From an uncultured archaeon (GTDB lineage Archaea > Aenigmatarchaeota > Aenigmatarchaeia > CG10238-14): a DNA stretch of 64,000 bases. The notes below the pieces were generated by a model that saw only the letters and a list, made by a program, of their open reading frames with translations, searched no databases and was not told the origin of the DNA. The first letter of the stretch is position 1; the number at the start of each line of letters is the position of its first letter. The position numbers and the translations under genes were made by a program. The DNA lies in contig CAYJVB010000001.1 of assembly GCA_964373575.1 (NCBI GenBank), positions 8,262 through 72,261 on the forward strand. Reading direction: 5' to 3'. Of this stretch, positions 4,373 through 44,914 are shown in pieces.

Positions 4373-5278
4373 TTATCTAATGTCAAATTTATACCACCCC
4401 ACTTTAATCCTTTTTGCTATTTTAGATTTTACAAATAAATTTAAATACCCCAACAATGTGTTTCTATGAAATACAATTTGATATTTTTGTTCTATGTTAT
4501 CTTTTATGCTTTTAAAATTTATTTTATCTGGATAAGAGTTTCGCAGTTGATTATAAATTTCCTTTAAGAATGGTAATTTTGAGTGTGTTTGTTCGGGAAA
4601 CAATTTCATTAACCTATCTATATCTAATTTTTCACCTTTTTTAATGACTTTCAGTTTTCTCTTCTTTGGTCCATCCAAAATATTCATGAAAAAGTCAGCA
4701 GATCTACTACTAAAGCCGTATTTCCATCCAGTAGACCATTTTGTGATTTGGTATCTAAATTTTCTAATATGAATCTCCTCTTTTTTAAGAATTGAGATAA
4801 TCTGGTCGTACAATTTTCTGCTTTTGGTTGAAAATTCTATTGTTCCATCTATTTTAACAGTACCATCGAATATCAACAATCCTGAAATAAAAGCTAATTT
4901 ATGTTCTCTAGTATTATTAAGAATCTGACTTGGTACGGAAACTGTAGTTGATTTTTTGCCATAAGGAAATTCTAAACTATGAAAATATTGGACTAAGATT
5001 TTATTTCCAATGCGATAACGATGCCATTTTCTATGTGACTCAATTGAACCTTTCTTTTTTATTATAGATTTTATCCATTCTGATGCAAGAAAAATGTTTT
5101 CTTTCCATCCATCTGCAATCTCAAAATAGTATGACGAAGCTGGATAGCCGTTCCAAATTTTATTTTGTTTGTATATAGTTCCATCAGCTGCCAAAGCACC
5201 GCACAGTTTACTTATTGTTATACCATTCTTATTATTAGGGATAAAATTATTCTTGAATTCTATAGTATTATTGTACAC
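4373..5278 (-). CDS. Free-standing double-motif LAGLIDADG homing-endonuclease-like protein
   Basis: Two LAGLIDADG-type motifs about 95 aa apart (LCGALAADGTI and FISGLLIFDGTV). The product is basic and Lys-rich. It is not embedded in a host ORF or in an rRNA/tRNA intron. Confidence 0.55.
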   Translation of the reverse strand: MYNNTIEFKNNFIPNNKNGITISKLCGALAADGTIYKQNKIWNGYPASSYYFEIADGWKENIFLASEWIKSIIKKKGSIESHRKWHRYRIGNKILVQYFHSLEFPYGKKSTTVSVPSQILNNTREHKLAFISGLLIFDGTVKIDGTIEFSTKSRKLYDQIISILKKEEIHIRKFRYQITKWSTGWKYGFSSRSADFFMNILDGPKKRKLKVIKKGEKLDIDRLMKLFPEQTHSKLPFLKEIYNQLRNSYPDKINFKSIKDNIEQKYQIVFHRNTLLGYLNLFVKSKIAKRIKVGWYKFDIR

Positions 5279-6264: not shown

Positions 6265-6567
6265 TTATTTCGCCAAAGTTATGCTCATTGTGGAAACGTT
6301 GATTTTGTTTCCCCCTTCAACTTCTCTCTCTTCAGTTCCTATCTCAATGTTTCTAACCTTAACATCTGATAGGAATTTGTGTTTCACAATCTCTGTCACG
6401 TCCACAGCTCTTGATATACTTCTACCTCTAGCTTTGATATATACCTCATTGACGCCACTTGTAAATTGCGTCATTACAGCTAGAACATATGCCATCGCAG
6501 GTTTCTTACCAATAAAGACAACATTATCACCTGCTTTTACTCCTTGTTCCACTTTCTTCTCTACCAT
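6265..6567 (-). CDS. albA: Alba, archaeal DNA/RNA-binding chromatin protein
   Basis: [20 protein letters not shown]...[20 protein letters not shown] matches the Alba signature (IGKKP, KARGRAIS.AVD). Confidence 0.85.
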
Positions 6568-13787: not shown

Positions 13788-15269
13788 TTAACACGCCAAT
13801 CCATTCATATATGAAACTAGAGGACCATTATTTCCTGCATCTCCAGTTAAATCCGGATAAATTTCAAATGAACCCCAACCAAACTGCCCATAATGAAATA
13901 TAGCTGCGCCAACAACATAGCTATCTTCCTTCAACTTGGAATCATACCATTTAAGGTCCTCAAGATATGAGCTCGCGTCAGTATGAGCCCTCCAACCACA
14001 ATTATCTTCACAACCTCCAGAATCAATTCCAGTTTCAGTTATTACCAAAGGAATTTCTAAATTATTTGGTTGCAAATATTGTCTGTAAACTTTTCTATAT
14101 CTCAGTGTAAGCCATCCAGTGTCTCCATCCAAATTACATTGCATTGAAGGTGAACAATATTCATGTAAGCTAAGATATCCACCATTTTGTTTTGCAGCCT
14201 CTAATGCAGGCTTAAATTCAGACCATAAAGCCAAATCAGGGTTACCAGCTGAGAACGACCCAATACACGCCTTTCTACTTATACTGTTCAGCAATTTTAT
14301 TCTTTCAACCTCAAAAGAACTCATCCACTGCATTTCTTGAGCTGTATGACCTGGAACAGGTTCATTATATCCTTCCCAACAATCTACACTATTAGTAGAC
14401 TCAATAGTACCTCTATTTCTATTAAACCAATCTCTAGCCCTTTGTGCAGCATCTCCATCAGTTGGCTGTTGTCCAGCGGATTCAACAATTCTTCCAACAA
14501 TAAATGTGCATGGTGACGTCTGTTTTATTTCCTCAGCCTTCCCATAATCGCTATTAAGTTTAACAACAGATGGTTTTGTTGAATCAACAAATTCCATCAC
14601 ACCAGATTTTTGAAATTGTGTCTGAATTCCAAGCTTACTGCGACACGCTAAATTCAAATCACAAGTTCTTGGAGGCATTGTCGTTGTACTTCCAGGCAAT
14701 GTAGTCGTCGTTTCCTCATCCCCACCATAATTGTCAGTAGGTACATGAATAGGTGGTGGCGGGGGTTTAGACAATTCCAAGTTTACAGCATTACTAGTTC
14801 TCTTGAAAGTAACCTCATACTCCTTCACCAACGGCCTTCCAAGTATCTTGTTCACCGCAATCTGAAAATCATTATAATCCTCTAGTGTTCCCATATGCGG
14901 CAACCTAGTCCTGCATCTCAGCTTACTGCATCTATTAAACTGCTCCGACTTAAACTGGAAGCATAGATAATCTCCCTCACTTAACTTATCACTCTTAATG
15001 AGATCGCTAACAGTCGGCAATACATCATCAGGTTTGTCAGTTGTATAAAACACACGTACTTGACTTGGTATCAATAAATCAAAGGTCAAAAAATTTCCCG
15101 GCTCTTGAGAGCATACAGAATCTAAATCTTCGTTTATATTGGAAAATTGCTCAAGAAAAGTTTGTTTTTGAGATTCAATGACAAACGATGCTATTAACTG
15201 ATAACCTATTGAAAAAACCATTAATCCTAATACAATCCCACCAACAGCTAGTAAAATAGTGTCAGCCAT
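13788..15269 (-). CDS. Membrane-anchored, pilin-like N-domain fused through a Thr/Pro linker to a clan GH-A (GH5-like) glycoside hydrolase
   Basis: N-terminus MADTILLAVGGIVLGLMVFSIGY. Linker TTTTLPGSTTTMPP. The catalytic-type motifs WEGYNEP (acid/base NEP) and LVITETGIDS (nucleophile TE.G) are typical of GH5/clan A. Confidence 0.5.
   Translation of the reverse strand: MADTILLAVGGIVLGLMVFSIGYQLIASFVIESQKQTFLEQFSNINEDLDSVCSQEPGNFLTFDLLIPSQVRVFYTTDKPDDVLPTVSDLIKSDKLSEGDYLCFQFKSEQFNRCSKLRCRTRLPHMGTLEDYNDFQIAVNKILGRPLVKEYEVTFKRTSNAVNLELSKPPPPPIHVPTDNYGGDEETTTTLPGSTTTMPPRTCDLNLACRSKLGIQTQFQKSGVMEFVDSTKPSVVKLNSDYGKAEEIKQTSPCTFIVGRIVESAGQQPTDGDAAQRARDWFNRNRGTIESTNSVDCWEGYNEPVPGHTAQEMQWMSSFEVERIKLLNSISRKACIGSFSAGNPDLALWSEFKPALEAAKQNGGYLSLHEYCSPSMQCNLDGDTGWLTLRYRKVYRQYLQPNNLEIPLVITETGIDSGGCEDNCGWRAHTDASSYLEDLKWYDSKLKEDSYVVGAAIFHYGQFGWGSFEIYPDLTGDAGNNGPLVSYMNGLAC
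14811..14982. repeat. Copy 1 of a ~171-bp perfect direct repeat. Copy 2 is at 15342..15512.
   Basis: Compared base by base: acctcatactccttcaccaacggcc ... agataatctccctcact is identical in both copies. The flanks diverge. Confidence 0.85.
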
Positions 15270-15293
15270 TATTATAATTTGTTTTCAAGTATT

Positions 15294-15800
15294 TTATTTT
15301 TTAAAATCAATATTTATTCCGTTGACAGTCCTGGTAAACCTCACCTCATACTCCTTCACCAACGGCCTTCCAAGTATCTTGTTCACCGCAATCTGAAAAT
15401 CATTATAATCCTCTAGTGTTCCCATATGCGGCAACCTAGTCCTGCATCTCAGCTTACTGCATCTATTAAACTGCTCCGACTTAAACTGGAAGCATAGATA
15501 ATCTCCCTCACTCAATTTGTTATTATCTATCAGTTCATCGACATTCAGTAATATTTGATCAGGATTATCGGTAGTGTAAAGAACCCTGACTTGGTTCGAT
15601 ATTCTTATATTTGAAAGATGCGAATTCCCTGGTTCATTTTGGCATACACTTTCTATTTCAGCATTTATTGTATTGATCTGGTTGAGAAAATCATGTTTCA
15701 TAGCCTGTAAAATATTGTTAGTTAACAAATTATATCCTATGAGAAAAATCATTAACCCTATTATAATTCCACCCGCAGCAAGAATAATCGTCTCTGGCAT
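15294..15800 (-). CDS. Truncated paralog of the N-terminal (pilin-like) domain of the 13788..15269 protein. A 60-aa stretch is identical at protein level and 171 bp are identical at DNA level.
   Basis: MPETIILAAGGIIIGLMIFLIGY..., then the stretch LSEGDYLCFQFKSEQFNRCSKLRCRTRLPHMGTLEDYNDFQIAVNKILGRPLVKEYEV, identical to the stretch in the upstream gene. Confidence 0.45.
   Translation of the reverse strand: MPETIILAAGGIIIGLMIFLIGYNLLTNNILQAMKHDFLNQINTINAEIESVCQNEPGNSHLSNIRISNQVRVLYTTDNPDQILLNVDELIDNNKLSEGDYLCFQFKSEQFNRCSKLRCRTRLPHMGTLEDYNDFQIAVNKILGRPLVKEYEVRFTRTVNGINIDFKK
15342..15512. repeat. Copy 2 of the ~171-bp perfect direct repeat. Copy 1 is at 14811..14982.
   Basis: See copy 1. Confidence 0.85.
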
Positions 15801-15824
15801 TATTATAATTTCTCTTCACAGCAT

Positions 15825-16433
15825 TTATCGTTTGAACAATTTGTCTTTGTTTTTAAGATAAACGACTACAGCAATAATTATCAAGGCAAATAATATTAAC
15901 AAAATTCCTATAGTCACATTTCTACTGCTACTGGTTTTTGTAGGCAAAGTAGTAGTTGTGCTTCTAACAGTAGTCGTTGTAAGTCTTGTTGTTGTAGTTG
16001 CCTGCAATGTTGTTGTAGTTGCCTGCAATGTTGTTGTAGTTGCCTGCAATGTTGTTGTAGTGATAGAACTAGGCAATGTAGTAGTCGTCACTGATGGTTG
16101 ATTTACATCTATAAAAACCTCATCGGATTGACCCTCATTACAGTCTGCTTTAATCTTAACTGTTCCGAGTGGTGAGCCACAACTGGTCCAATTTATACTT
16201 GCAATTCCCGTCGATGATATCTTTGGTAGGCACGAAGGACTGCTGACAAGCAATTTGTAAACAATTAAATTTCCTTGTGTACAATTTTCTACAACCTTGC
16301 ATTCACAAGTCTTGTCAGTGTCGCATTTCCAGTTTTCATTTCCCGATTTGCAGTATTGAATAGTAATAGCAGCTGACACATTACTAATAATAACCAAAAA
16401 AACCATAGCTGTAATAAGCATTTTTTTCAGCAT
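15825..16433 (-). CDS. Secreted Cys-rich protein with a (TTTTLQA)n repeat linker and a C-terminal TM anchor
   Basis: Sec signal MLKKMLITAMVFLVIISNVSAA. Eight Cys in the first 100 aa. TTTTLQATTTTLQATTTTLQATTTT. C-terminal stretch IGILLILFALIIIAVVVYL followed by basic residues. Confidence 0.5.
   Translation of the reverse strand: MLKKMLITAMVFLVIISNVSAAITIQYCKSGNENWKCDTDKTCECKVVENCTQGNLIVYKLLVSSPSCLPKISSTGIASINWTSCGSPLGTVKIKADCNEGQSDEVFIDVNQPSVTTTTLPSSITTTTLQATTTTLQATTTTLQATTTTRLTTTTVRSTTTTLPTKTSSSRNVTIGILLILFALIIIAVVVYLKNKDKLFKR
15988..16060. repeat. 21-bp tandem repeat (gttgttgtagttgcctgcaat, about 3.5 copies) inside the CDS. It encodes the TTTTLQA repeats (minus strand).
   Basis: Three exact consecutive 21-nt units at 15988..16008, 16009..16029 and 16030..16050, plus a partial fourth unit. 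Confidence 0.8.
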
Positions 16434-22864: not shown

Positions 22865-24319
22865 CTAAACGCTCTTCAACAAACTATATTTTTCCTTGAG
22901 CACCATAATCCTAGTTATCTTTTCTTTTATCAACTCTTTTGAAATTTCTCCAGAATTAATCATAGATACAATAGTCGAATATGCCGCATTAGCATTAGAA
23001 GAAGAGCTAAACAACAGTATATCAACATTTGTCGCAGCCCTTTTTACCATTTCTTCAAATGTTATTCCTAAATGTGTATTTTTGCCTGTAAGCGAATCTG
23101 ATATTAACACAGCATTTGGTGATATTTGTCTAGCCCGGTTTGTTAATGTGGGTGAAAAAACAGCTAAATTATTAGGATCAATATTTGTGTAAACTATGTT
23201 ATTCATCATTATCATATCCAAATCATTTGACAATCCAGCATAAGGTTTTATATCACTATTTTCCAAATCCTGCATAGTTCTGCTATCTGTTGCTTTCTGA
23301 AAATCACTATTGTCCATCTGATTCCCATAACCTGGGAAATGTTTTCCTGTAGCTATGACACCCTCATCATGAAGACCTTTAGCAAAAGCCCTGCCTATAG
23401 TCTCAACATTTGCAGGATTTCCGGAAAAAGATCTTTCTTGATTATATATTAATCCAGACAAGGATACATCCAACACAGGCGCAAGATTGGTATTTAGATT
23501 ATGTTGTTTCATTTCTATTGCGATATCCTTCGCATGATTCTCAATATCTAATATACTCATAGTTCCAGATGTATACCTACTTCCAATATCCCTCGCAGAA
23601 ATTCTTCCAGGATTAAAATCTTTAGGCATTCTTCTAACCAATCCACCTTCTCCATCTGTAGCAACAAAAGGCCATATCTGCACATTGTTTATTACAGTAG
23701 GTATAGGAGAGAAACCGGCTTGTATATTAGAAGCAAACAAATAATAATTTTTATATTTCGTTCCATCAGGTGTAGACATTATCATTTGTTCCACCAATTG
23801 CTCAGTAGTCATTCCATTAACCAGATTAACAGCTAATGAAGGGATAGTTGTTGTAGTTGTAGCAACTGGAATTGTAGTAGTCGTTTCTTCAGTTGGTAAA
23901 GTAGTTGTTGTACTTTTTTTTATCACCTCTTCAGAGAATAATAAAACCTTTCTTTCATACCCATCATATCTTACTTTAATTTGGTATTGTTTGTTCGCAT
24001 CAATTTTTTTGAATTTAATATCCACAAAATCTCTTTTCACTTTTTCTAAATCCTGTTCTATGCCCTTGTCAGTCGAAATAGCTTTAATGACAAAACAGTC
24101 ATCTACAATGCTATCGCTACCAGAATTATGCTTACTCCAGCACAAGTTAGAGCATGTTACAAGATTCTGTACTATTAGCTCTGAGGCCGTATTCTGATCC
24201 AGGTAACATATCTTTGGAACCGTCTGCCAACTAATAGTAATCAAAACAATAACTGTGAATATTGGAACAACAATAAGCAATAACCCAACAACATTTTTTT
24301 CAACAGACAACAGCACCAC
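22865..24319 (-). CDS. Membrane-anchored glycoside hydrolase family 3 (NagZ-like beta-N-acetylglucosaminidase) behind a poly-Thr linker
   Basis: N-terminal TM. Linker TTTTLPTEETTTTIPVATTTTTIPS. GH3 N-domain motifs NLAPVLDV, KHFPGYGN...DSR and VLISDSL (compare NagZ: PVLDL, KHFPGHG..DSH, SDDL). Confidence 0.55.
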   Translation of the reverse strand: MVLLSVEKNVVGLLLIVVPIFTVIVLITISWQTVPKICYLDQNTASELIVQNLVTCSNLCWSKHNSGSDSIVDDCFVIKAISTDKGIEQDLEKVKRDFVDIKFKKIDANKQYQIKVRYDGYERKVLLFSEEVIKKSTTTTLPTEETTTTIPVATTTTTIPSLAVNLVNGMTTEQLVEQMIMSTPDGTKYKNYYLFASNIQAGFSPIPTVINNVQIWPFVATDGEGGLVRRMPKDFNPGRISARDIGSRYTSGTMSILDIENHAKDIAIEMKQHNLNTNLAPVLDVSLSGLIYNQERSFSGNPANVETIGRAFAKGLHDEGVIATGKHFPGYGNQMDNSDFQKATDSRTMQDLENSDIKPYAGLSNDLDMIMMNNIVYTNIDPNNLAVFSPTLTNRARQISPNAVLISDSLTGKNTHLGITFEEMVKRAATNVDILLFSSSSNANAAYSTIVSMINSGEISKELIKEKITRIMVLKEKYSLLKSV

Positions 24320-26345
24320 CCGAACCAGTGACTATAGGAATTATCAATTGTTGGAATGCAATCAATGCTATAACACTAACAGCGCCATAAACCATCATCC
24401 CAGTCATGAGACTCTTCGCTATTAAATAATTTCTTGAAGTTTCATCAAACCCATTCTCAATCCCATTAAGCAATATTGAAAAAATAGTAATGATCTCCAC
24501 AGTATAAATTCCAATAATTATTTGCAACACGGTCATAGGCATTACTTGCGTAAAATTCCCAACAAGGTCATTCAGAATGCTTCCAACACTAGCTGTTGCA
24601 CTTTGAACAAATGCTACACTAAAAGATCTTTCAATCTGTTGCAACTGGCACGAAAGTGTCCTCAGCATATTAAGAAAAAATATACCCAAAACTCCTGTCA
24701 TGGCACAAACAAGTGGCACAACAAAGGTACTCTCCAGTCTAGCACTCGCCCTTACATCCTCCAGCAATTCTTTTATCTTAGCTTCAATATTGTTTAAATT
24801 TTCCAGATACGATCCGATTGTCTTAGCAACATTTCCTAATAGAACAGAACTTTTTGATGAGGCATCACCCAAGATCCTCATTATCTCTTCAATAAGAACC
24901 GAGGGAAAAAATCTAATCAATCCATCTTTGCCAAAAATTGCATTCATAAAATCCGTGCCTAGGTTTTTCATTTTGTTATACAGTTGCGAAAAGAAATTGT
25001 AAGTGGGATTCTTCTGTAGCCCTAGTTTTTCATATTCATCCAAGCTCTTCTCAATACCCTTTTCAATAGGATAACCCTCAGAGAGGAAATTGCCTAAAGT
25101 ATACAAACCCAACTGGAAATCATTTTCAATGCCCTTTATCTGATTTCTGATATTAATTCTAGGAGCACTTTTCATGTAGAAATACAAAAAGAAGAATACT
25201 GCAACGCCGAATGTCACAGAAAATGTAGAGACCAAATTTTCCAGACTAAACTCAGCCTCCTTTTTCAGCATATCAAGCTTCACTCCTTCACTGGCCACCG
25301 ATAAGTTAGAATACAGATCAACAAAATGCAGGACACCATAAACCATTATCAGCAACGACACTACAACAGCAGCAGGCGCAATTGGTATCAAAACAGTTTT
25401 TGTAGATAACCTCAACGGATATCTATTTGTCGGAGGTAGTTGTGGATGTTTGGAAATATCCGGAACCATAAATGCAGATGGTCTCTTGAGTATTATCCTG
25501 TTTACAAGAAACAGCAGCAGCAAAGGCAGTACAACTGTATAACCAATTCCTAAATAAAATGGATTAATAGAGTTATGCAGAAACATTGAAATCAAGGGAA
25601 ACATTATTATTCCCATAACAGGCAGCAGTATTCCAAGAAAATACAAAATATTGATAGGCCCGTTAATATCCTCAACATAAGTCTTCATCTTCCTTTCCGT
25701 GCTTGTCAATAGAAAGTTAAGTGATTTCATCAAAATCCTTTCCCTCTCACCCTCGGATGGTTCAACCAGAATATTGTACAAAAGCGTAATCGATCTTACA
25801 AAATCCTCATTCCACACCCTCCACTTGGCCATATAAACTGCTAGCGCATCCTCAATTGTGTTATATCTCCCTATCTGCAGATCCCACATTACCTTTTTTA
25901 TATCCTTTGACAACGGCCCTTTAGAATGAGCTGCAGCAAAATTCATTGCGCCTTCAAAATTCGGATGCAGTTTAAGGTAGATTACCATATAGAGAATGAT
26001 CTTTATTGATTCGTCGCCTGTTTGTATTCTCAGTACTTGAGACATGAATCTCGGATAAGTGAATACCAGATAGCTTGTAATGGCTGGGATAAGAAGAAGA
26101 AACGGCAATGCACGCAAGTTATTTGCTATCAATGCAAAACTAGCGAATGCTATCGAAAGCAACAAGAATGTTAAAATTGTGGCTGATACAACACCTCTTG
26201 TGGAAACATTGAGTGTTGAAAATACAATATCCTCTTTCAACTGTCTACTTGATTTCTTCGGTAGATCGAGACCCAACACCTCACTATATCTACACAGCTT
26301 CTCAAAACCACTCTTAGCTTCCTTCGCTTCCTTCTCTTGAAACAA
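24300..26345 (-). CDS. TadC/FlaJ/GspF-like polytopic membrane platform protein of a type IV pilus-like system (paralog 1)
   Basis: 681 aa. Cytoplasmic helical domains alternate with TM clusters. Region-by-region similarity to the 39151..41196 protein (VMWDLQIGRYNTIEDALAVYMAKWRVWNEDFVRSI versus ILWDVHTRRYSSVEEALQDFGDKWKVQNEEFTRSL). Architecture matches the T2SS-F / archaeal FlaJ family. Confidence 0.6.
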   Translation of the reverse strand: MFQEKEAKEAKSGFEKLCRYSEVLGLDLPKKSSRQLKEDIVFSTLNVSTRGVVSATILTFLLLSIAFASFALIANNLRALPFLLLIPAITSYLVFTYPRFMSQVLRIQTGDESIKIILYMVIYLKLHPNFEGAMNFAAAHSKGPLSKDIKKVMWDLQIGRYNTIEDALAVYMAKWRVWNEDFVRSITLLYNILVEPSEGERERILMKSLNFLLTSTERKMKTYVEDINGPINILYFLGILLPVMGIIMFPLISMFLHNSINPFYLGIGYTVVLPLLLLFLVNRIILKRPSAFMVPDISKHPQLPPTNRYPLRLSTKTVLIPIAPAAVVVSLLIMVYGVLHFVDLYSNLSVASEGVKLDMLKKEAEFSLENLVSTFSVTFGVAVFFFLYFYMKSAPRINIRNQIKGIENDFQLGLYTLGNFLSEGYPIEKGIEKSLDEYEKLGLQKNPTYNFFSQLYNKMKNLGTDFMNAIFGKDGLIRFFPSVLIEEIMRILGDASSKSSVLLGNVAKTIGSYLENLNNIEAKIKELLEDVRASARLESTFVVPLVCAMTGVLGIFFLNMLRTLSCQLQQIERSFSVAFVQSATASVGSILNDLVGNFTQVMPMTVLQIIIGIYTVEIITIFSILLNGIENGFDETSRNYLIAKSLMTGMMVYGAVSVIALIAFQQLIIPIVTGSGGAVVC

Positions 26346-39150: not shown

Positions 39151-41196
39151 CTAGACACCAATATCTGAAATCAAGCGTCCTAGAACAAAGAATATAATCA
39201 ATACAGTAGCTGTAAATATCAATGCACCTCTCATCAAGCTTGTAGCTATAGAATATTGAATTTCTATATTGTCATCTCCCTTTTCAATTCTAACCGAAAA
39301 AACGCTAAGAGAAATCAGAACTTCTATCATATAAATACCAACAACTATCACAAAAATTTCTAGCGGCATTATGTTTTCAATCGATAAAGGTAAATTTTTG
39401 ACATCTTCTATAGGAAAAGATTTGAATAAATCGCTAATATAAATCAAAATTCTTACTAATATTCCACCTAGTCCAACAACAGCTCCAGCAGCCAATGGCA
39501 CTAGAACTATTGACATAATCTTCATCGATGAGATAACATCCTCCAAAATATCTTTCAAATTCTGGCTTACAGTTTGAATTCCTTTCAAATAATCCGAAAC
39601 AGCTATCAACGTCGTCGCAGCAATACCCATTCCTTTTGTCGTCGACTCAACAGTTATCCTCATCGTATTCTTAATCAAAGCCGACGGGTATTCATTTATC
39701 AACCCAACATCTTTATTGAACACAGCTTCTTTAAGAGTCAGTCCCATTTGCGATATCCTGTACAACAATTTCTCGAAAAACACATGAATCTTCTCATTCT
39801 TCACCTTTTCAGTAACTTTCTTTAATGAGTTCTCCAATGGCTGTCCCGATCTTAAAACAGTTCCAAGAATGAACATAGCATCCCCAAAATCTCTCTCAAC
39901 ACCCTCAATTTCTTCTTTGATTTTTTTATTTTTGTTGCTTGAAAAGAAAGTGTAAAACACAATAGCAATTATTAAACCCCAAAAAATACCTAACGAAGCA
40001 AACAACTTATCGTCAAGAGTTATACCTTCACTGGGATTAAATAAAGTCACCAATCCAAAACTTGATACCAATAAGAAAAACATTGCAGCAATAGGAACTA
40101 ACGGAATCTCTATCTTATTTTTACCAATAAATATAGCAGCATTCCCCGGTTTTGCAGCTTGAGGATGATTATATATATCGGGAACATAAAATCCATACGG
40201 CCTCTTCTCCAACTGATTTTTCATTAACCACAAAACAAGAAACGGCAGTATCAAATCATATAAACCAACAAGCACATATATCTTTGCCGTCTTCCCCAGA
40301 ACCAGCGTGACAATAGGAAACAAAATCAATGTTATAACAGGCAATAAAATCCCTAGCGCATGTATAGTTGTTATTGGCGCCTTCAACTCTCTAGAATATT
40401 CCTTCATCCTCTCCAAATTCGATTCAAGTATGAGTTTTACAGCATTATCAATAGTTTTATCTCTATTAACAGGTTCTAACAAAGAAGTTGTTAACATATC
40501 TAATGATCTAGTAAACTCTTCATTCTGAACCTTCCACTTATCTCCAAAATCTTGCAACGCCTCCTCAACACTAGAATATCTCCTAGTATGAACATCCCAC
40601 AGAATCTTTCTCAAATCCTTCCCTACAGCCCCAGGTAAATTAACAGCAGCGAACGTAACAGCATTTTCTAAATTAGGCGTATTCCTCAAGCCAATTGCAA
40701 TATACAAAACCGCAAGAACAAGTTCAGATGAAGCCCCCACTCTTACCTTTTTAGAATAGCTATTAGGATACGTCAGCAAGTAATATGAAAATGCAAAACC
40801 AACCATTGATTCCAGCAACAAATACGGTAGTATTTTCCCAAACGTTATTCCAGCTGATAAAATAAAAAACAACCCCGCCGATAGAAACATTGCAATTACT
40901 GTAGCTATCAATCCAAAAACAAAAGTTGAATAAACAGTATAAGGTTCTACATTAAGATTAGAAAAATTCAGTTTAGCATACAAATCTTTTTCTTTCTCAT
41001 CACTTATTTTTATCCTAATTAAATTTCCAGAAAATGCACACAATTTCTCATACCAATTTCTTTTCTCAGATTCTGTTTTGATGTATTCTAAAAAATCCTG
41101 TGACAGTCTTTTCCCAACAACATTGACAAAATCATCGTATAACTTGTCTAATTCTCTCTTCATCCTAACCACGTATTTGCCTTCTAAGCCAGTCAT
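39151..41196 (-). CDS. TadC/FlaJ/GspF-like membrane platform protein (paralog 2), immediately downstream of the ATPase
   Basis: 681 aa, the same length and domain order as the 24300..26345 protein. It overlaps the ATPase gene by 32 nt. Confidence 0.6.
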   Translation of the reverse strand: MTGLEGKYVVRMKRELDKLYDDFVNVVGKRLSQDFLEYIKTESEKRNWYEKLCAFSGNLIRIKISDEKEKDLYAKLNFSNLNVEPYTVYSTFVFGLIATVIAMFLSAGLFFILSAGITFGKILPYLLLESMVGFAFSYYLLTYPNSYSKKVRVGASSELVLAVLYIAIGLRNTPNLENAVTFAAVNLPGAVGKDLRKILWDVHTRRYSSVEEALQDFGDKWKVQNEEFTRSLDMLTTSLLEPVNRDKTIDNAVKLILESNLERMKEYSRELKAPITTIHALGILLPVITLILFPIVTLVLGKTAKIYVLVGLYDLILPFLVLWLMKNQLEKRPYGFYVPDIYNHPQAAKPGNAAIFIGKNKIEIPLVPIAAMFFLLVSSFGLVTLFNPSEGITLDDKLFASLGIFWGLIIAIVFYTFFSSNKNKKIKEEIEGVERDFGDAMFILGTVLRSGQPLENSLKKVTEKVKNEKIHVFFEKLLYRISQMGLTLKEAVFNKDVGLINEYPSALIKNTMRITVESTTKGMGIAATTLIAVSDYLKGIQTVSQNLKDILEDVISSMKIMSIVLVPLAAGAVVGLGGILVRILIYISDLFKSFPIEDVKNLPLSIENIMPLEIFVIVVGIYMIEVLISLSVFSVRIEKGDDNIEIQYSIATSLMRGALIFTATVLIIFFVLGRLISDIGV

Positions 41197-44100
41197 CCCA
41201 TCTATTGAAAATTTCTTCTGGATTCAAAACGCCATAATCCCTTTTTACATCATCCGAAATGAGGTGAAACATTTCGTTGCTCAATGAAACCCACTCAGCT
41301 TCTAATATATCCTTTCTATCAAGCCTGTTAGCATAATCCACCATCGTCTGCTTCATCTTTGCCCTCAACTCAATATTATCCCAAACAGCCTCCCAGTTGC
41401 CATGCCAATCTCTAACCCTTTTCGCAATCTCATTAACAACAAGCGATTCTCCATTAAGCAATGTTCCAGTTGGTTTCAACTCATCATCTTTAGCCGAATA
41501 TTCCATCAAAGTAACAAAACCCTTTTCATCCATAGGGTCACTCTTCCAATGTTTCCTCACTTCAGCAACTTCAAGTATTCTTCTATATCTATGCAGGCCA
41601 TCCCCAGATTTTATCATTCCTGAAATAACAATTACGTCAATTGCTTTGAAACTTGTCGCTGTCACACCCAAATCATTTACAACTCTATCAAAAACACCGT
41701 ATGGCGACTCTCCATGTATAGTTCCAGCGACAACATTGGATAACGCACCAATCCTCATCGCCTCAAACAAAGCTCTAGCTTCAGTATTATGCAACAATAT
41801 ACCACCAAACCCACCAACAAAATTTTCACTAGGATTAACTGATAAATCATAAACAAATTCACTCTTTTCTAGCTCTATTTCTTTGATTTCGACTATTTCG
41901 TCAAGGAAGAAATCTCCCCCTGCAAAATTCTTTAGTCTTCCTGACGTTTGACATTCTTTATCATTCACTACTCTCTCCAAATATTTCTTGCTGCATTTTT
42001 CAAAACGGAACAAATGTCTATATTTTCTAGGATATCTAGTAAGATGTTTTTTCAGTTCAATTTTATCGAAATATACCATATTAACCTTTGTGTGTTCCCA
42101 TCCCGCTTCAATCATTACAGGATCATATTTAGTAAAACCAACCTCTTTTAAAAATATTTTGACCATTTTCCTATCTTTAAATTCAACTGTCCATAAAGGT
42201 TTTCTGCTTTTTTTATTTCTTATTTCTTTAATTCTAGCAACTATTCCAAAAACAAGAAGTAGATATAACAGATCCTCAGCAAGCAACTTCGAAGTTGTGT
42301 AATATCTTACTGCATTTCCAGACCTTATAGATTTTGTGAAATTTCCGTCACCGCTATAAAGCCCACGTAAAAATGCCGCTATTTTCTTTCGGTTTAATCC
42401 AAAAATCAGTGGTGGAATTCTTTTATCGCCTGAAGTTCTGCCACATTCCAACTTTGATAAAAATGTTGATAACGGAGATGAGAATAAATGAACTTGAGTT
42501 GATTTACCCCAACCAGTGATCGATCTGAAAGACGGCTTGATATTGAAGGTTTTATTCGAAATATCTACAATTTCTTGAATTATTTCTGGATTAGAATTTG
42601 TTATTACAACACGGCCACCCCTACCTTCAGTCAAATCATAATAACCTTCTGCTACATAATAACCCAAAAATTTACAAAAATCTTCATTAACAGAAATCAC
42701 AGCAGGTATTGGGTTGCCGGTGCCACGGGTTATCATTAATTCTTCAGGTTCATAAAATGTATTTGTAGCCTTCATCAATTGAACAAAATTGTGAACCGGT
42801 ATGTTTGTTTTCTGGGCTCTGAAATAATTATAAATATCACCAGAAGTAACCTTACAGATTTCAGTAGCTTTTTTCCACCCAACTTTTTGAATACTTCTTC
42901 TTACAGCATCTTCAAAATTTTTTAATCTAAATTCCGGTAATATATCAATTAAATTTAGATCATCTATATCATTGAATCCACAAAGCATCTTAGAGGGTAT
43001 AACTACCTGATTACCAGGTTTAAGTTTATCACATTCTATCGCTGCAATTCTAAAATCTTTAGTAGCAGTAAATAAACTATGGTCAGGAGTAACTGTGACC
43101 TTCCTACCAGTTTTTGTTGTTATTTCAATAAGTTTTTTCCTTGGTGGGTGTTTAACAAAGTCTGCTAAGGGCCTTATATTCATTTTCAGATTGAAATCGA
43201 GAGTAGGCACATTGTAATTTTTGATCCCCCTGTTTTCCAAATCTTTTATCTTAACTCTTTTTGTAACATTATTTTCTATCACTAAAACTTCTTGATCCCC
43301 TCTAATAGAACTTCTCACCTCACCAACAATCAAACAAGAATCACCCAATCTCAACGCAGTTCTTAATGCATCATCTGCCGGCAACTCGGATTCAATTCTT
43401 GTAATAACAGATCGCGACTTCATCCTTTCGATATTATATCCTATGTCTCTTAGTTGTGTTATAGGTAATTCAAGCGTGTCCTCTAGGCTAATTACACGAA
43501 ACTTTTTCATCATTTCCAACATAGTCGCTCCTAGCAGTGATGATTTACCACTCGATCTTCCACCTGCAAACAAAATAGTCCTCGAACCGTCAACAAGAAA
43601 ACTCATCAATCCAGCAAACATCGAATTCATATATTTCGTGTTCATAAACAATGGATAAGTCCATGGTCTATCTCTATGCCTTCTCAATGCATATGCCAAT
43701 CCTTCTGGACTTAATGTCCTTGTAATAGCACCAACCCTAGCCCTCCCGCCAGGTACAAACAACTCAGTATCAAGAACAGGATTTGCCTCATCTAACGGTC
43801 TTCCAGAAAGCAGTCTGAACCTCGTAGCCCAACTCTCAGCATCCTCCCTTGTCGGTATTAAATTAGTCTCGCACTCTTCATAATCGTCATGCAATACATA
43901 AACCGGCGTGATCCCTATAGGCGAATTTATGTAAATATCTTGCAACTTGGTATCACTCAGCAACAATTCCAATATCCCAAATCCTGCAGTATATCTAACA
44001 AGTATATTCACCATCTCTTCCAGTTCCTTCGGTGTATATTGATTTTTTGCAGCCATCTGATTAATCATATCCTTTCCAATATTCAGGAAAATTTCCCTCG

Positions 44101-44914
44101 CCCTTTCAGGTTGTGTGAACTCCTTCTCTCCAGGCTTATGTTCAGTCAGCTGTGACCTTGCCGAATTAATAATCGCATACTTGTCATCCGTAAGCTTGAA
44201 CTCAGGTGCAATAAGATGATAAAAATATCTTACCTTATTTGGAACCCTGTAAATCTCAACCTGCAAATTTCCTTGTACATCATATCTCTCAACAAGCCTC
44301 CCACCCTTCGGCGGAAGAAAAGCATACCTCGTCAACATGAAAATAGGTCTTATAAGAGGATTGAATATCTGCCTATAGACATCTCTATTTCCGATAACAT
44401 ATCCATACAAGTTATCCTTGACAAGGCTGATCAGTTTTGTCTTCTCCAACTCTTTGAGTACCGGCTCTAGAACATTCCTCACAAACATCAGATAGTAAGC
44501 CCCATCTTTTGTTGTTTTGACCTTTGAATAATATTGCCTCATCATCCTCCTTATCTTAACATACGCCCCAATGGGATCTCTTTTGACCATCTGTTCCAAA
44601 ACAACCTTGAATTGATTGAGCGGCGCACCTAATATCCTTGCCGCAGCCTGACCTCCAATTTTTGAAAAATCAATTCCTTGTGTAGCGAGTCTATCATAAA
44701 CATCAGCCACTTCTAACAACAGCTTTGTCTGATCATAGTCATATTCATACTCCCTTGTTTCAGCAAGAATAATCCTCTCAACCCTTTTGAGTTGAAGTAT
44801 CTTATCAATAACACTGCCCATTATAATGTCAGAATCTTCTAGATTAGTGCCGTACACACTGTTCATTACATTAACCTTCAGAATACCGTCAATCATTTCA
44901 TGCTCTAATGCCAA
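41165..44914 (-). CDS. Type IV pilus/secretion ATPase (GspE/FlaI/TadA/VirB11 superfamily) containing a large intein
   Basis: Walker A FAGGRSSGKSSLLGAT. Asp/His-box region RLGDSCLIVGEVRS is interrupted and resumes TEARALFEAMRIGALSNVVAGTIHGESP, matching the host motif IIVGEVRG.EA...TGH.G..TTIHA. A long N-terminal domain is typical of archaeal FlaI-like ATPases. Confidence 0.75.
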   Translation of the reverse strand: MALEHEMIDGILKVNVMNSVYGTNLEDSDIIMGSVIDKILQLKRVERIILAETREYEYDYDQTKLLLEVADVYDRLATQGIDFSKIGGQAAARILGAPLNQFKVVLEQMVKRDPIGAYVKIRRMMRQYYSKVKTTKDGAYYLMFVRNVLEPVLKELEKTKLISLVKDNLYGYVIGNRDVYRQIFNPLIRPIFMLTRYAFLPPKGGRLVERYDVQGNLQVEIYRVPNKVRYFYHLIAPEFKLTDDKYAIINSARSQLTEHKPGEKEFTQPERAREIFLNIGKDMINQMAAKNQYTPKELEEMVNILVRYTAGFGILELLLSDTKLQDIYINSPIGITPVYVLHDDYEECETNLIPTREDAESWATRFRLLSGRPLDEANPVLDTELFVPGGRARVGAITRTLSPEGLAYALRRHRDRPWTYPLFMNTKYMNSMFAGLMSFLVDGSRTILFAGGRSSGKSSLLGATMLEMMKKFRVISLEDTLELPITQLRDIGYNIERMKSRSVITRIESELPADDALRTALRLGDSCLIVGEVRSSIRGDQEVLVIENNVTKRVKIKDLENRGIKNYNVPTLDFNLKMNIRPLADFVKHPPRKKLIEITTKTGRKVTVTPDHSLFTATKDFRIAAIECDKLKPGNQVVIPSKMLCGFNDIDDLNLIDILPEFRLKNFEDAVRRSIQKVGWKKATEICKVTSGDIYNYFRAQKTNIPVHNFVQLMKATNTFYEPEELMITRGTGNPIPAVISVNEDFCKFLGYYVAEGYYDLTEGRGGRVVITNSNPEIIQEIVDISNKTFNIKPSFRSITGWGKSTQVHLFSSPLSTFLSKLECGRTSGDKRIPPLIFGLNRKKIAAFLRGLYSGDGNFTKSIRSGNAVRYYTTSKLLAEDLLYLLLVFGIVARIKEIRNKKSRKPLWTVEFKDRKMVKIFLKEVGFTKYDPVMIEAGWEHTKVNMVYFDKIELKKHLTRYPRKYRHLFRFEKCSKKYLERVVNDKECQTSGRLKNFAGGDFFLDEIVEIKEIELEKSEFVYDLSVNPSENFVGGFGGILLHNTEARALFEAMRIGALSNVVAGTIHGESPYGVFDRVVNDLGVTATSFKAIDVIVISGMIKSGDGLHRYRRILEVAEVRKHWKSDPMDEKGFVTLMEYSAKDDELKPTGTLLNGESLVVNEIAKRVRDWHGNWEAVWDNIELRAKMKQTMVDYANRLDRKDILEAEWVSLSNEMFHLISDDVKRDYGVLNPEEIFNRWDDWLRRQIRG
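41786..43309 (-). other. Intein (~508 aa; protein residues ~536-1043) with a LAGLIDADG homing-endonuclease domain, inserted in the Asp-box/His-box region of the ATPase
   Basis: The insert starts with Ser after GEVRS and ends ...GILLHN, followed by extein Thr+1. It has Hint-like blocks and LAGLIDADG motifs (FLGYYVAEGY, LRGLYSGDGNF). Removing it restores the contiguous conserved motif VGEVRS-TEARAL. Confidence 0.6.

Follow-up and report, generated by a model that had tools for sequence, protein, structure and literature searches.

Probable recurrent gene conversion between stand-alone and hydrolase-fused copies of an N-terminal module in an Aenigmarchaeota-like archaeon

Introduction

The adjacent mtrA-1 and mtrA-2 genes of methanogens undergo recurrent, domain-restricted gene conversion and provide a precedent for this process in archaea (2015, PMC4632066). 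Long-lasting recurrent concerted evolution has also been described in prokaryotes, according to the abstract of Wang & Chen 2018 (PMC6053082). Here we describe two neighbouring genes in a 64-kb stretch of contig CAYJVB010000001.1 (the whole stretch is referred to as the window herein), which derives from an archaeon of the DPANN group. The short gene encodes a stand-alone N-terminal module, and the long gene encodes a related module joined to a predicted glycoside hydrolase (GH) domain. The two genes share an internal tract that is identical at the nucleotide level, and our sequence comparisons indicate that recurrent ectopic gene conversion (concerted evolution) between these tandem paralogs very probably explains it.

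Recombination among pilin gene copies is familiar from the pilE/pilS system of Neisseria, in which pilin antigenic variation draws on several silent, promoterless donor cassettes and variable segments are exchanged. Pilin-type signals are also found in the bindosome of Sulfolobus, where functional proteins carry class III (pilin-type) signal peptides, as outlined in PMC3047682. Our literature searches returned no description of the module family that we report here, nor of conversion at such loci.

Results

The two paralogs share a single identical tract

The initial annotation of the window had called both genes as open reading frames (ORFs) with the correct ends, encoding 493 and 168 amino acids (aa), and we found both to be present (Table 1). 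It had placed the short ORF downstream; since both genes are on the minus strand, the short gene is upstream in gene orientation, separated from the long gene by an intergenic spacer of 24 nucleotides (nt). A base-by-base comparison revealed a single unbroken run of 170 identical bases, arranged as a direct repeat at an offset of 531. The same annotation had described this run as a perfect stretch of 171 bp; the identity is indeed perfect, and the length is 170 bases, the ranges having been drawn one base too far at three of their four ends. The N-termini encoded before the tract are moderately similar, as had been noted, with 170 of 288 nt identical in codons 1–96 (59%). At this background the probability of 170 consecutive matches is ~1e-39. 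In 30-nt windows, identity is 1.00 inside the run and 0.43–0.73 within the first 60 nt on each side, falling to 0.27 past the homologous region on the low-coordinate side.

At third codon positions, the window paralogs agree at 56/57 sites in codons 97–153 versus 36/96 in codons 1–96. The sole difference within codons 97–153 (170/171) is synonymous and lies in codon 153, at the edge of the tract, and the short gene stops 15 codons past the tract. The shared sequence encodes three of the four cysteines that are invariant in the module, together with the VNKILGRPLVKEY motif. With zero differences in 170 nt and flanks of ~59% identity, the earlier proposal of very recent recombination at a surface locus is well founded. 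No other long repeat was found in the 64-kb window, a profile of the module run on the six-frame translation detected just these two copies, and inverted repeats of at least 40 nt were absent from the 64 kb.

Segments of the module have different histories

Two further lineages were found to carry the gene pair: contig CAYJTF010000005.1 (L002) and the RIFCS genome (contigs L003 and L001). Synteny is kept in both, with a LamG protein, a threonine (Thr)-rich protein, the short gene, the long gene and an SLT/M14 hydrolase. The six N-module sequences of the three lineages were aligned and compared by segment, with synonymous and non-synonymous differences (pS and pN) obtained from Nei-Gojobori counts. 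Codons 24–69 group by gene type, as S-type (short gene) or L-type (long gene): aa identity is 65–96% among the three short genes, 63% between the long genes of the window and RIFCS, and 33–39% across types. Over this segment, the window long gene is thus 63% identical to its RIFCS counterpart and 33% to its own neighbour, and the window short gene is 65–70% identical to the short genes of L002 and RIFCS and 33–37% to the L-type genes. The exception is the long gene of L002, whose codons 24–69 are 100% S-type, the whole module having been converted. The tails of the module, codons 154–166, also group by gene type.

Codons 97–153, in contrast, group by genome. Within genomes the paralogs match at 170/171 (window), 171/171 (L002) and 166/171 (RIFCS) positions, while between the window and the other two genomes identity is 80–84%, with 33–34 of 57 third positions matching. 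In these between-genome comparisons pS is 0.77–0.80, which is saturated, and pN is 0.05–0.06. Outside the tract, the synonymous sites of the two window copies are themselves near saturation (pS 0.73–0.81). Since synonymous sites are homogenised within a genome, the identity does not stem from selection on the protein. A constraint at the nucleotide level, such as an embedded RNA or DNA element, was ruled out, as synonymous sites diverge freely between species. The flanking segments keep their orthology by gene copy, and the duplication is therefore older than the split of the lineages. The mosaic phylogenetic pattern, its recurrence and the homogenisation of synonymous sites are all directly observed.

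Tract borders differ between lineages

The initial annotation had suggested that related strains be compared for alternative junctions, and we found that the borders do differ: the homogenised sequence spans 170 nt in the window, 112 + 257 nt in RIFCS and 522 nt in L002. The L002 repeat is perfect and runs from 43 nt upstream of the ATG through codon 160, and the long gene there therefore carries an S-type module. In RIFCS, when an intact short copy is used, the tracts lie at -42 to +69 (109/112 identical) and at +208 to +464 (252/257, including 155 perfect bases). The RIFCS pair is divided between the ends of L003 and L001. At the start of the tract these ends have exactly 43 nt in common, which indicates that the assembly broke at the repeat. 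A scan of metagenomes yielded one contig, JGI L005 (1034 nt), that extends from the start of the short-gene tract through an Alba gene towards the long gene. We count in favour of conversion that independent assemblies break at the repeat, as at the RIFCS contig ends and at the start of L005.

The short gene as deposited for RIFCS (L003, 10001–10379) has an internal, out-of-frame gap of 128 nt. This gap is missing from three further independent assemblies (L006–L008), which have an intact 168-aa short gene identical to both halves of the L003 copy. Since these assemblies are intact, the gap is either an artefact, probably a mis-assembly caused by the repeat, or a rare variant.

In L002 the 168-aa short gene is followed by the Alba gene and then by a long gene of 544 aa. 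Alba thus lies between the paralogs in L002 (10587–10928) and L003 (10459–10800), and is 7 kb away from them in the window (6265–6567, minus strand). The coding region of the window Alba gene is 73% identical to those of the relatives. Homology is confined to this region; a search of the flanks for homology that might account for the difference in position found none. Alba would be lost from the relatives if a deletion occurred between their direct repeats, and it may be for that reason that longer repeats persist there.

Recurrent ectopic gene conversion as the favoured explanation

Since the duplication is old and the tracts are younger, independent and of three geometries, we favour recurrent ectopic gene conversion. 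Under this model, the stand-alone module and the module fused to a glycoside hydrolase would be old tandem paralogs whose duplication predates at least three Aenigmarchaeota lineages, and non-reciprocal homologous recombination between copies 0.5–1 kb apart would repeatedly paste one over the other. The latest event in the window would have covered codons 97–153 (170 nt) and would be so recent that the tract has no substitution. We infer that strong aa constraint on codons 97–153 keeps nt identity high enough to seed recombination or heteroduplex formation, and that homogenising these codons is harmless or beneficial, as overwriting them leaves the protein unchanged; the route of recombination, which copy served as donor and any selective cause have the same inferential status. 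As a side effect, the direct repeats could mediate replacement of a whole N-module, or a deletion fusing both genes. The initial annotation had left a choice between a recent duplication and a gene-conversion tract. Its second option agrees with the mosaic and with the homogenised synonymous sites, and a simple recent duplication conflicts with the type-specific orthology.

Some points weigh against this model. The comparison covers three gene-pair lineages, which is a small sample, and donor and recipient are indistinguishable within the tract. De Bruijn-graph assemblers emit a collapsed repeat node twice. Because such an assembler can collapse near-identical copies, 100% identity may hide a few real differences, and the exact identity in the window and in L002 (coverage of ~6.8x per the contig name) may be slightly overstated.

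Alternative explanations

The identity might instead be maintained by selection, if both proteins need the same sub-domain to co-assemble, for example into a pilus-like filament, or to dock the same partner. We regard this as possible, though on balance unlikely. It would account for the homogenisation of codons 97–153 in 3/3 lineages and fits the finding that they are the most constrained segment of the module (pN 0.05 versus 0.16–0.37 for codons 24–96), yet a neutral view, in which conversion persists where identity is highest, predicts the same pattern. The locus encodes a type IV filament ATPase and two platform proteins, a class III-like leader is present in 78 of the 123 N-terminally complete members of the module family, and an unrelated pilin-like short/long pair, described below, also has a 326-nt perfect tract. 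Co-assembly itself is a conjecture, however, and the AlphaFold2 (AF2) model of the module is poor (predicted local distance difference test (pLDDT) score of 48). Type IV pilins assemble through their N-terminal helix, yet the helix region is diverged between the window proteins.

Programmed variation was suggested by the initial annotation, with the short gene serving as a donor cassette that switches the N-terminal domain of the enzyme and generates antigenic or length variation in the manner of Neisseria pilE/pilS. We consider this highly improbable. Direct repeats 531 nt apart are a substrate for recombination, but there are two copies only in the 64 kb, and the supposed donor is itself intact, having a start codon and an upstream motif, and is subject to purifying selection. 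The exchanged tract is the conserved part of the module and not a variable one. The ORFs scanned yielded neither a recombinase nor a reverse transcriptase, and the inverted repeats of at least 40 nt that were sought are absent. Different C-terminal cargo behind a 98% identical N-module in contigs L010 and L011 (see below), as well as the replacement of the whole N-module of the L002 long gene by the short-gene type, would be in keeping with switching; the L002 replacement did occur, on an evolutionary time scale. Two related candidates were rejected. A diversity-generating retroelement is at odds with a perfect repeat that has no A-specific mismatches and with the lack of a reverse transcriptase in the ORFs scanned, and an invertible element with the lack of a recombinase in the same ORFs and of inverted repeats of at least 40 nt.

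We give equally little credence to an assembly artefact, by which the second copy or the perfect identity would come from a duplicated contig end, a strain chimera or the collapse of similar copies. The window is indeed part of a metagenome-derived contig (the long protein is P0001, on an 88-kb NCBI contig), and such repeats disturb the assemblies of the relatives, as seen in the contig break at the tract and the apparent deletion in the short gene of L003. Nonetheless, the two window copies have flanks that are only 55–70% identical and encode two distinct, intact ORFs, and two other genomes and four further independent contigs also contain a short/long pair whose tails are type-specific. A duplicated contig end, which the initial annotation had named as the outcome that would overturn its reading, is contradicted by the ~59% identity of the flanks and by the same pair in the two other genomes. 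Since the two RIFCS copies were told apart in assembly by 5 differences across 257 nt, the near-identity is real, and at most the exact 100% is uncertain.

Least credible of all is a simple recent partial duplication, in which the short ORF would be a newly made, truncated copy of the glycosidase gene's 5' portion: the genes are adjacent, co-oriented and co-linear across their first ~165 codons, but pS between the copies outside the tract is 0.73–0.81, orthologues of the short gene itself occur in other genomes, and a young duplicate should be uniformly similar and not a mosaic with type-specific orthology in codons 24–69 and the tails. The description of the short gene as a truncated paralog likewise does not hold. 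Its 168-aa length and type-specific tail are conserved in the other genomes, it is under purifying selection (pN 0.22 and pS 0.90 for codons 1–96, window versus L002), and about half of the 95 full-length family members are stand-alone proteins of comparable length, so the gene is not a truncated remnant.

The module defines a family of N-terminal domains

An exhaustive profile search with the shared module, which is ~160 aa long, matched 175 cluster representatives (E<=0.001), with the match almost invariably at the extreme N-terminus. Neither window protein matched a Pfam or NCBIfam family (E<=0.01), these databases having no model for the module, and a search of PDB sequences with the module profile gave chance matches only. 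Among the 95 full-length matches, 43 are stand-alone proteins (<=200 aa) and 45 are fused to larger proteins, whose C-terminal parts include peptidases M28, C25 and C1, GH5 cellulase, pectate lyase, M15 and transglutaminase-like domains. The invariant cysteines of the module are C53, C103, C114 and C119. AF2 predicts a helix at residues 2–53 followed by strands, at low confidence (pLDDT of ~48 for the short protein, from a 4-sequence alignment, and <50 for residues 95–133 of the long protein).

The leader mentioned above is short and basic, ends in [KR][GAS] and precedes a hydrophobic segment, which is the archaeal class III pattern. It is lacking in 31 of the 123 N-terminally complete members, and the two window proteins, which start with MADTILL and MPETIIL and have no basic leader, are among these. 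The term pilin-like, which the initial annotation had applied to the N-termini of both window proteins, is therefore plausible for the family, given the 78 members with a leader, and is not established for the window pair.

Two family representatives, P0171 and P0174, have 206 identical N-terminal residues and unrelated C-termini. Their contigs come from two different samples and represent the same locus in two metagenomes (L010, 1962–3518, versus L011, 351–1919). The upstream flank, the first ~300 codons, which comprise the N-module and a cysteine-rich spacer, and part of the downstream gene are 97–98% identical. No relationship is seen between the two in the C-terminal cargo or in part of the next gene, and one of them has a Peptidase_C1 domain. 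This is a swap of cargo between strains behind a constant module.

We also examined a 412-kb contig of another organism (L014), which encodes a pair from a different pilin-like family: a 368-aa fused gene (1768–2874) and a 156-aa stand-alone gene (4490–4960). The two are 2.7 kb apart, and their perfect run, near the start codon, gives way to 78% identity. Separately, a 58-nt promoter-plus-start segment of this contig is repeated at 4444 and 4955 (95%). In L012 and L013, where a 40%-identical stand-alone member of the module family lies beside other small genes, no intra-locus conversion tract was found, so not every member of the family shows conversion. At such loci, pilin-like N-modules seem to be commonly, but not universally, homogenised and shuffled.

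Taken one step further, the module could be an interchangeable carrier by which DPANN archaea display hydrolases (glycosidases, peptidases and cell-wall lytic enzymes) via a type IV filament-like apparatus. Conversion would keep stand-alone and cargo-bearing subunits compatible, and the same homology would swap N-modules or cargo between genes and strains. We put this forward tentatively and think it rather doubtful. As far as our searches reach, such a hydrolase-carrier family is undescribed, and we offer it as a lead and not as a result.

The long protein has a predicted clan GH-A barrel

The long protein has 535 homologues at E<=0.001. The listed matches cover ~43–65% of the query, corresponding to its C-terminal domain, with the exceptions of the self-match and P0002, and the few named homologues come from Chloroflexota-like bacteria and from archaea. 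AF2 pLDDT is mostly >90 over residues ~210–490, and Foldseek matched the model to PDB structures of families GH53, GH5, GH157, GH39 and GH158 as its top hits (probability 1.00, E 3e-6 to 1e-4, 10–14% identity). Columns N302-E303-P304 and T411-E412 are at least 90% conserved among 116 homologues and hold the candidate acid/base and nucleophile Glu residues. Searches by sequence were negative: the long protein had no match to Pfam PF00150 (Cellulase, GH5) or to any Pfam/NCBIfam family at E<=0.01, and phmmer against PDB sequences gave nothing relevant, only chance matches. The AF2 model and its Foldseek matches support a predicted (beta/alpha)8 barrel of clan GH-A. The earlier label of GH5-like is apt as regards the fold, to which GH53, GH5, GH157 and GH39 are about equally close, and fails as regards family membership, given the lack of a PF00150 match. 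Between module and barrel, both relatives have a LysM domain, and the window protein has a Pro/Thr linker in this place.

The gene pair lies in a type IV filament-like locus

The window encodes an archaeal signal recognition particle RNA and has a G+C content of 30–41%, and the long protein has its nearest relative in a protein annotated from the Candidatus Aenigmarchaeota metagenome-assembled genome (MAG) RIFCSPHIGHO2_02_FULL_35_12. The source of the window is an Aenigmarchaeota-like (DPANN) archaeon. An 11-nt A/T motif, AAATTATAATA, directly abuts the ATG of both paralogs in the window. With the start codons included, an identical 14-nt string is found at 15267–15280 and 15798–15811 (CATTATTATAATTT on the plus strand, AAATTATAATAATG in gene orientation). 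In L002 and L003, too, the core of the motif, ATTATAATAATG, lies immediately next to the paralogs' start codons. For a leaderless transcript, a canonical archaeal TATA box would be farther from the ATG than AAATTATAATA/ATTATAATAATG is.

The neighbourhood resembles a type IV filament locus, with two T2SSF-like platform proteins, a T2SSE ATPase and many small proteins with class III-like N-termini; no prepilin peptidase was identified among the window ORFs scanned. A free-standing LAGLIDADG-like ORF is located at 4373–5278. Several neighbours are predicted hydrolases (Table 1), and the presence of bacterial-type cell-wall hydrolase domains at an archaeal locus suggests that the apparatus is aimed at peptidoglycan-like substrates.

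Two further features of the window were noted. At 15970–16053, within the minus-strand gene 15825–16433, the Thr-rich stalk of a 202-aa membrane-anchored protein contains TTTLQAT repeats, encoded by 3–4 tandem units of 21 nt. In L002 and L003 the orthologous protein (185 aa) does not have the expansion, which is possibly a linker of variable length. On the plus strand at 2304–2410, Rfam detects a 107-nt tRNA (61 bits) that ARAGORN did not call, and which is probably an archaeal tRNA containing an intron.

Table 1. Positions of the paralogs, their segments and neighbouring genes in the window
Feature	Coordinates	Strand	Remarks
Short gene, S-type, 168 aa	15294..15800	-	stand-alone N-terminal module: hydrophobic N-terminal helix and four-cysteine domain
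Long gene, L-type, 493 aa	13788..15269	-	N-terminal module, Pro/Thr-rich linker and clan GH-A-like glycoside hydrolase domain (predicted)
Putative conversion tract, long-gene copy, codons 97-153	14812..14981	-	170/170 identical to 15343-15512
Putative conversion tract, short-gene copy, codons 97-153	15343..15512	-	170/170 identical to 14812-14981
Codons 1-96 of long gene, L-type, orthologous to RIFCS long gene	14982..15269	-	diverged from short gene (59% nt)
Codons 1-96 of short gene, S-type, orthologous to short genes of L002 and R-like (RIFCS-like) assemblies	15513..15800	-	
Predicted catalytic (beta/alpha)8-barrel domain of long protein, residues ~200-493	13791..14672	-	candidate residues N302-E303-P304, T411-E412
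Conserved A/T motif AAATTATAATA before long-gene ATG	15270..15280	-	window sequence
A/T motif AAATTATAATA before short-gene ATG	15801..15811	-	window sequence
SLT + M23 + M14 hydrolase, 829 aa	11295-13784	-	class III-like N-terminus
GH3 enzyme	22865-24319	-	behind Thr-rich linker
T2SSF-like platform genes	24300-26345 and 39151-41196		
M15 + SLT hydrolase, 852 aa	27327-29885	+	
T2SSE type IV filament ATPase	41165-44914	-	interrupted by intein with LAGLIDADG homing-endonuclease domain

Discussion

Domain-restricted conversion between tandem paralogs is a textbook mechanism, and the tract itself is therefore not a discovery. The locus is of value as a clean, cross-validated example, from an uncultivated DPANN archaeon, of conversion that is apparently recurrent, each of the three lineages having its own tract geometry. 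It also carries a practical warning, as the tracts here break or distort MAG assemblies by a contig break and a probably spurious deletion, both in RIFCS, and, possibly, repeat collapse. Finally, it draws attention to an unannotated family of N-modules that bear diverse extracellular hydrolases beside type IV filament machinery. Organisms of this kind are believed to spend their lives attached to other cells, and were the module a handle for display or assembly, it would bear on how DPANN cells attack or feed on their partners.

With regard to the enzyme, the long protein shares with clan GH-A (GH5, GH53, GH39, GH157) the predicted (beta/alpha)8 barrel and, as candidate catalytic motifs, the conserved NEP and TE. 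Unlike the members of those families, it belongs to no sequence family and is 10–14% identical to solved structures. As to its N-terminus, the bindosome, as outlined in the source cited above, likewise combines a pilin-type N-terminus on a functional extracellular domain with type IV filament-like assembly genes. Its proteins bind sugars, whereas the cargo here consists of hydrolases, and the window pair lacks the basic [KR][GA] leader.

Non-reciprocal recombination between pilin-like copies at a surface-structure locus is what the window pair would share with Neisseria pilE/pilS. In contrast to that system, the window has no silent cassettes and a single partner, the segment exchanged is conserved rather than hypervariable, and there is no sign of high-frequency programming. 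Closer is the concerted evolution described in the abstract of Wang & Chen 2018, where, as here, a paralog in the same genome is a closer match than the orthologue in another genome. In the window pair only a portion of one domain shows this pattern, and the genes that the abstract lists do not include this unannotated family.

The mtrA-1/mtrA-2 pair differs in several respects: it belongs to a core metabolic complex and the window proteins are cell-surface or secreted, the tracts described here are shorter, with borders that vary within the shared domain, and the pattern persists across three related genomes only, as opposed to deep time. In both cases, however, archaeal paralogs in one operon or locus have different domain architectures, only the shared domain has been homogenised, independently in several lineages, and the unshared parts evolve separately.

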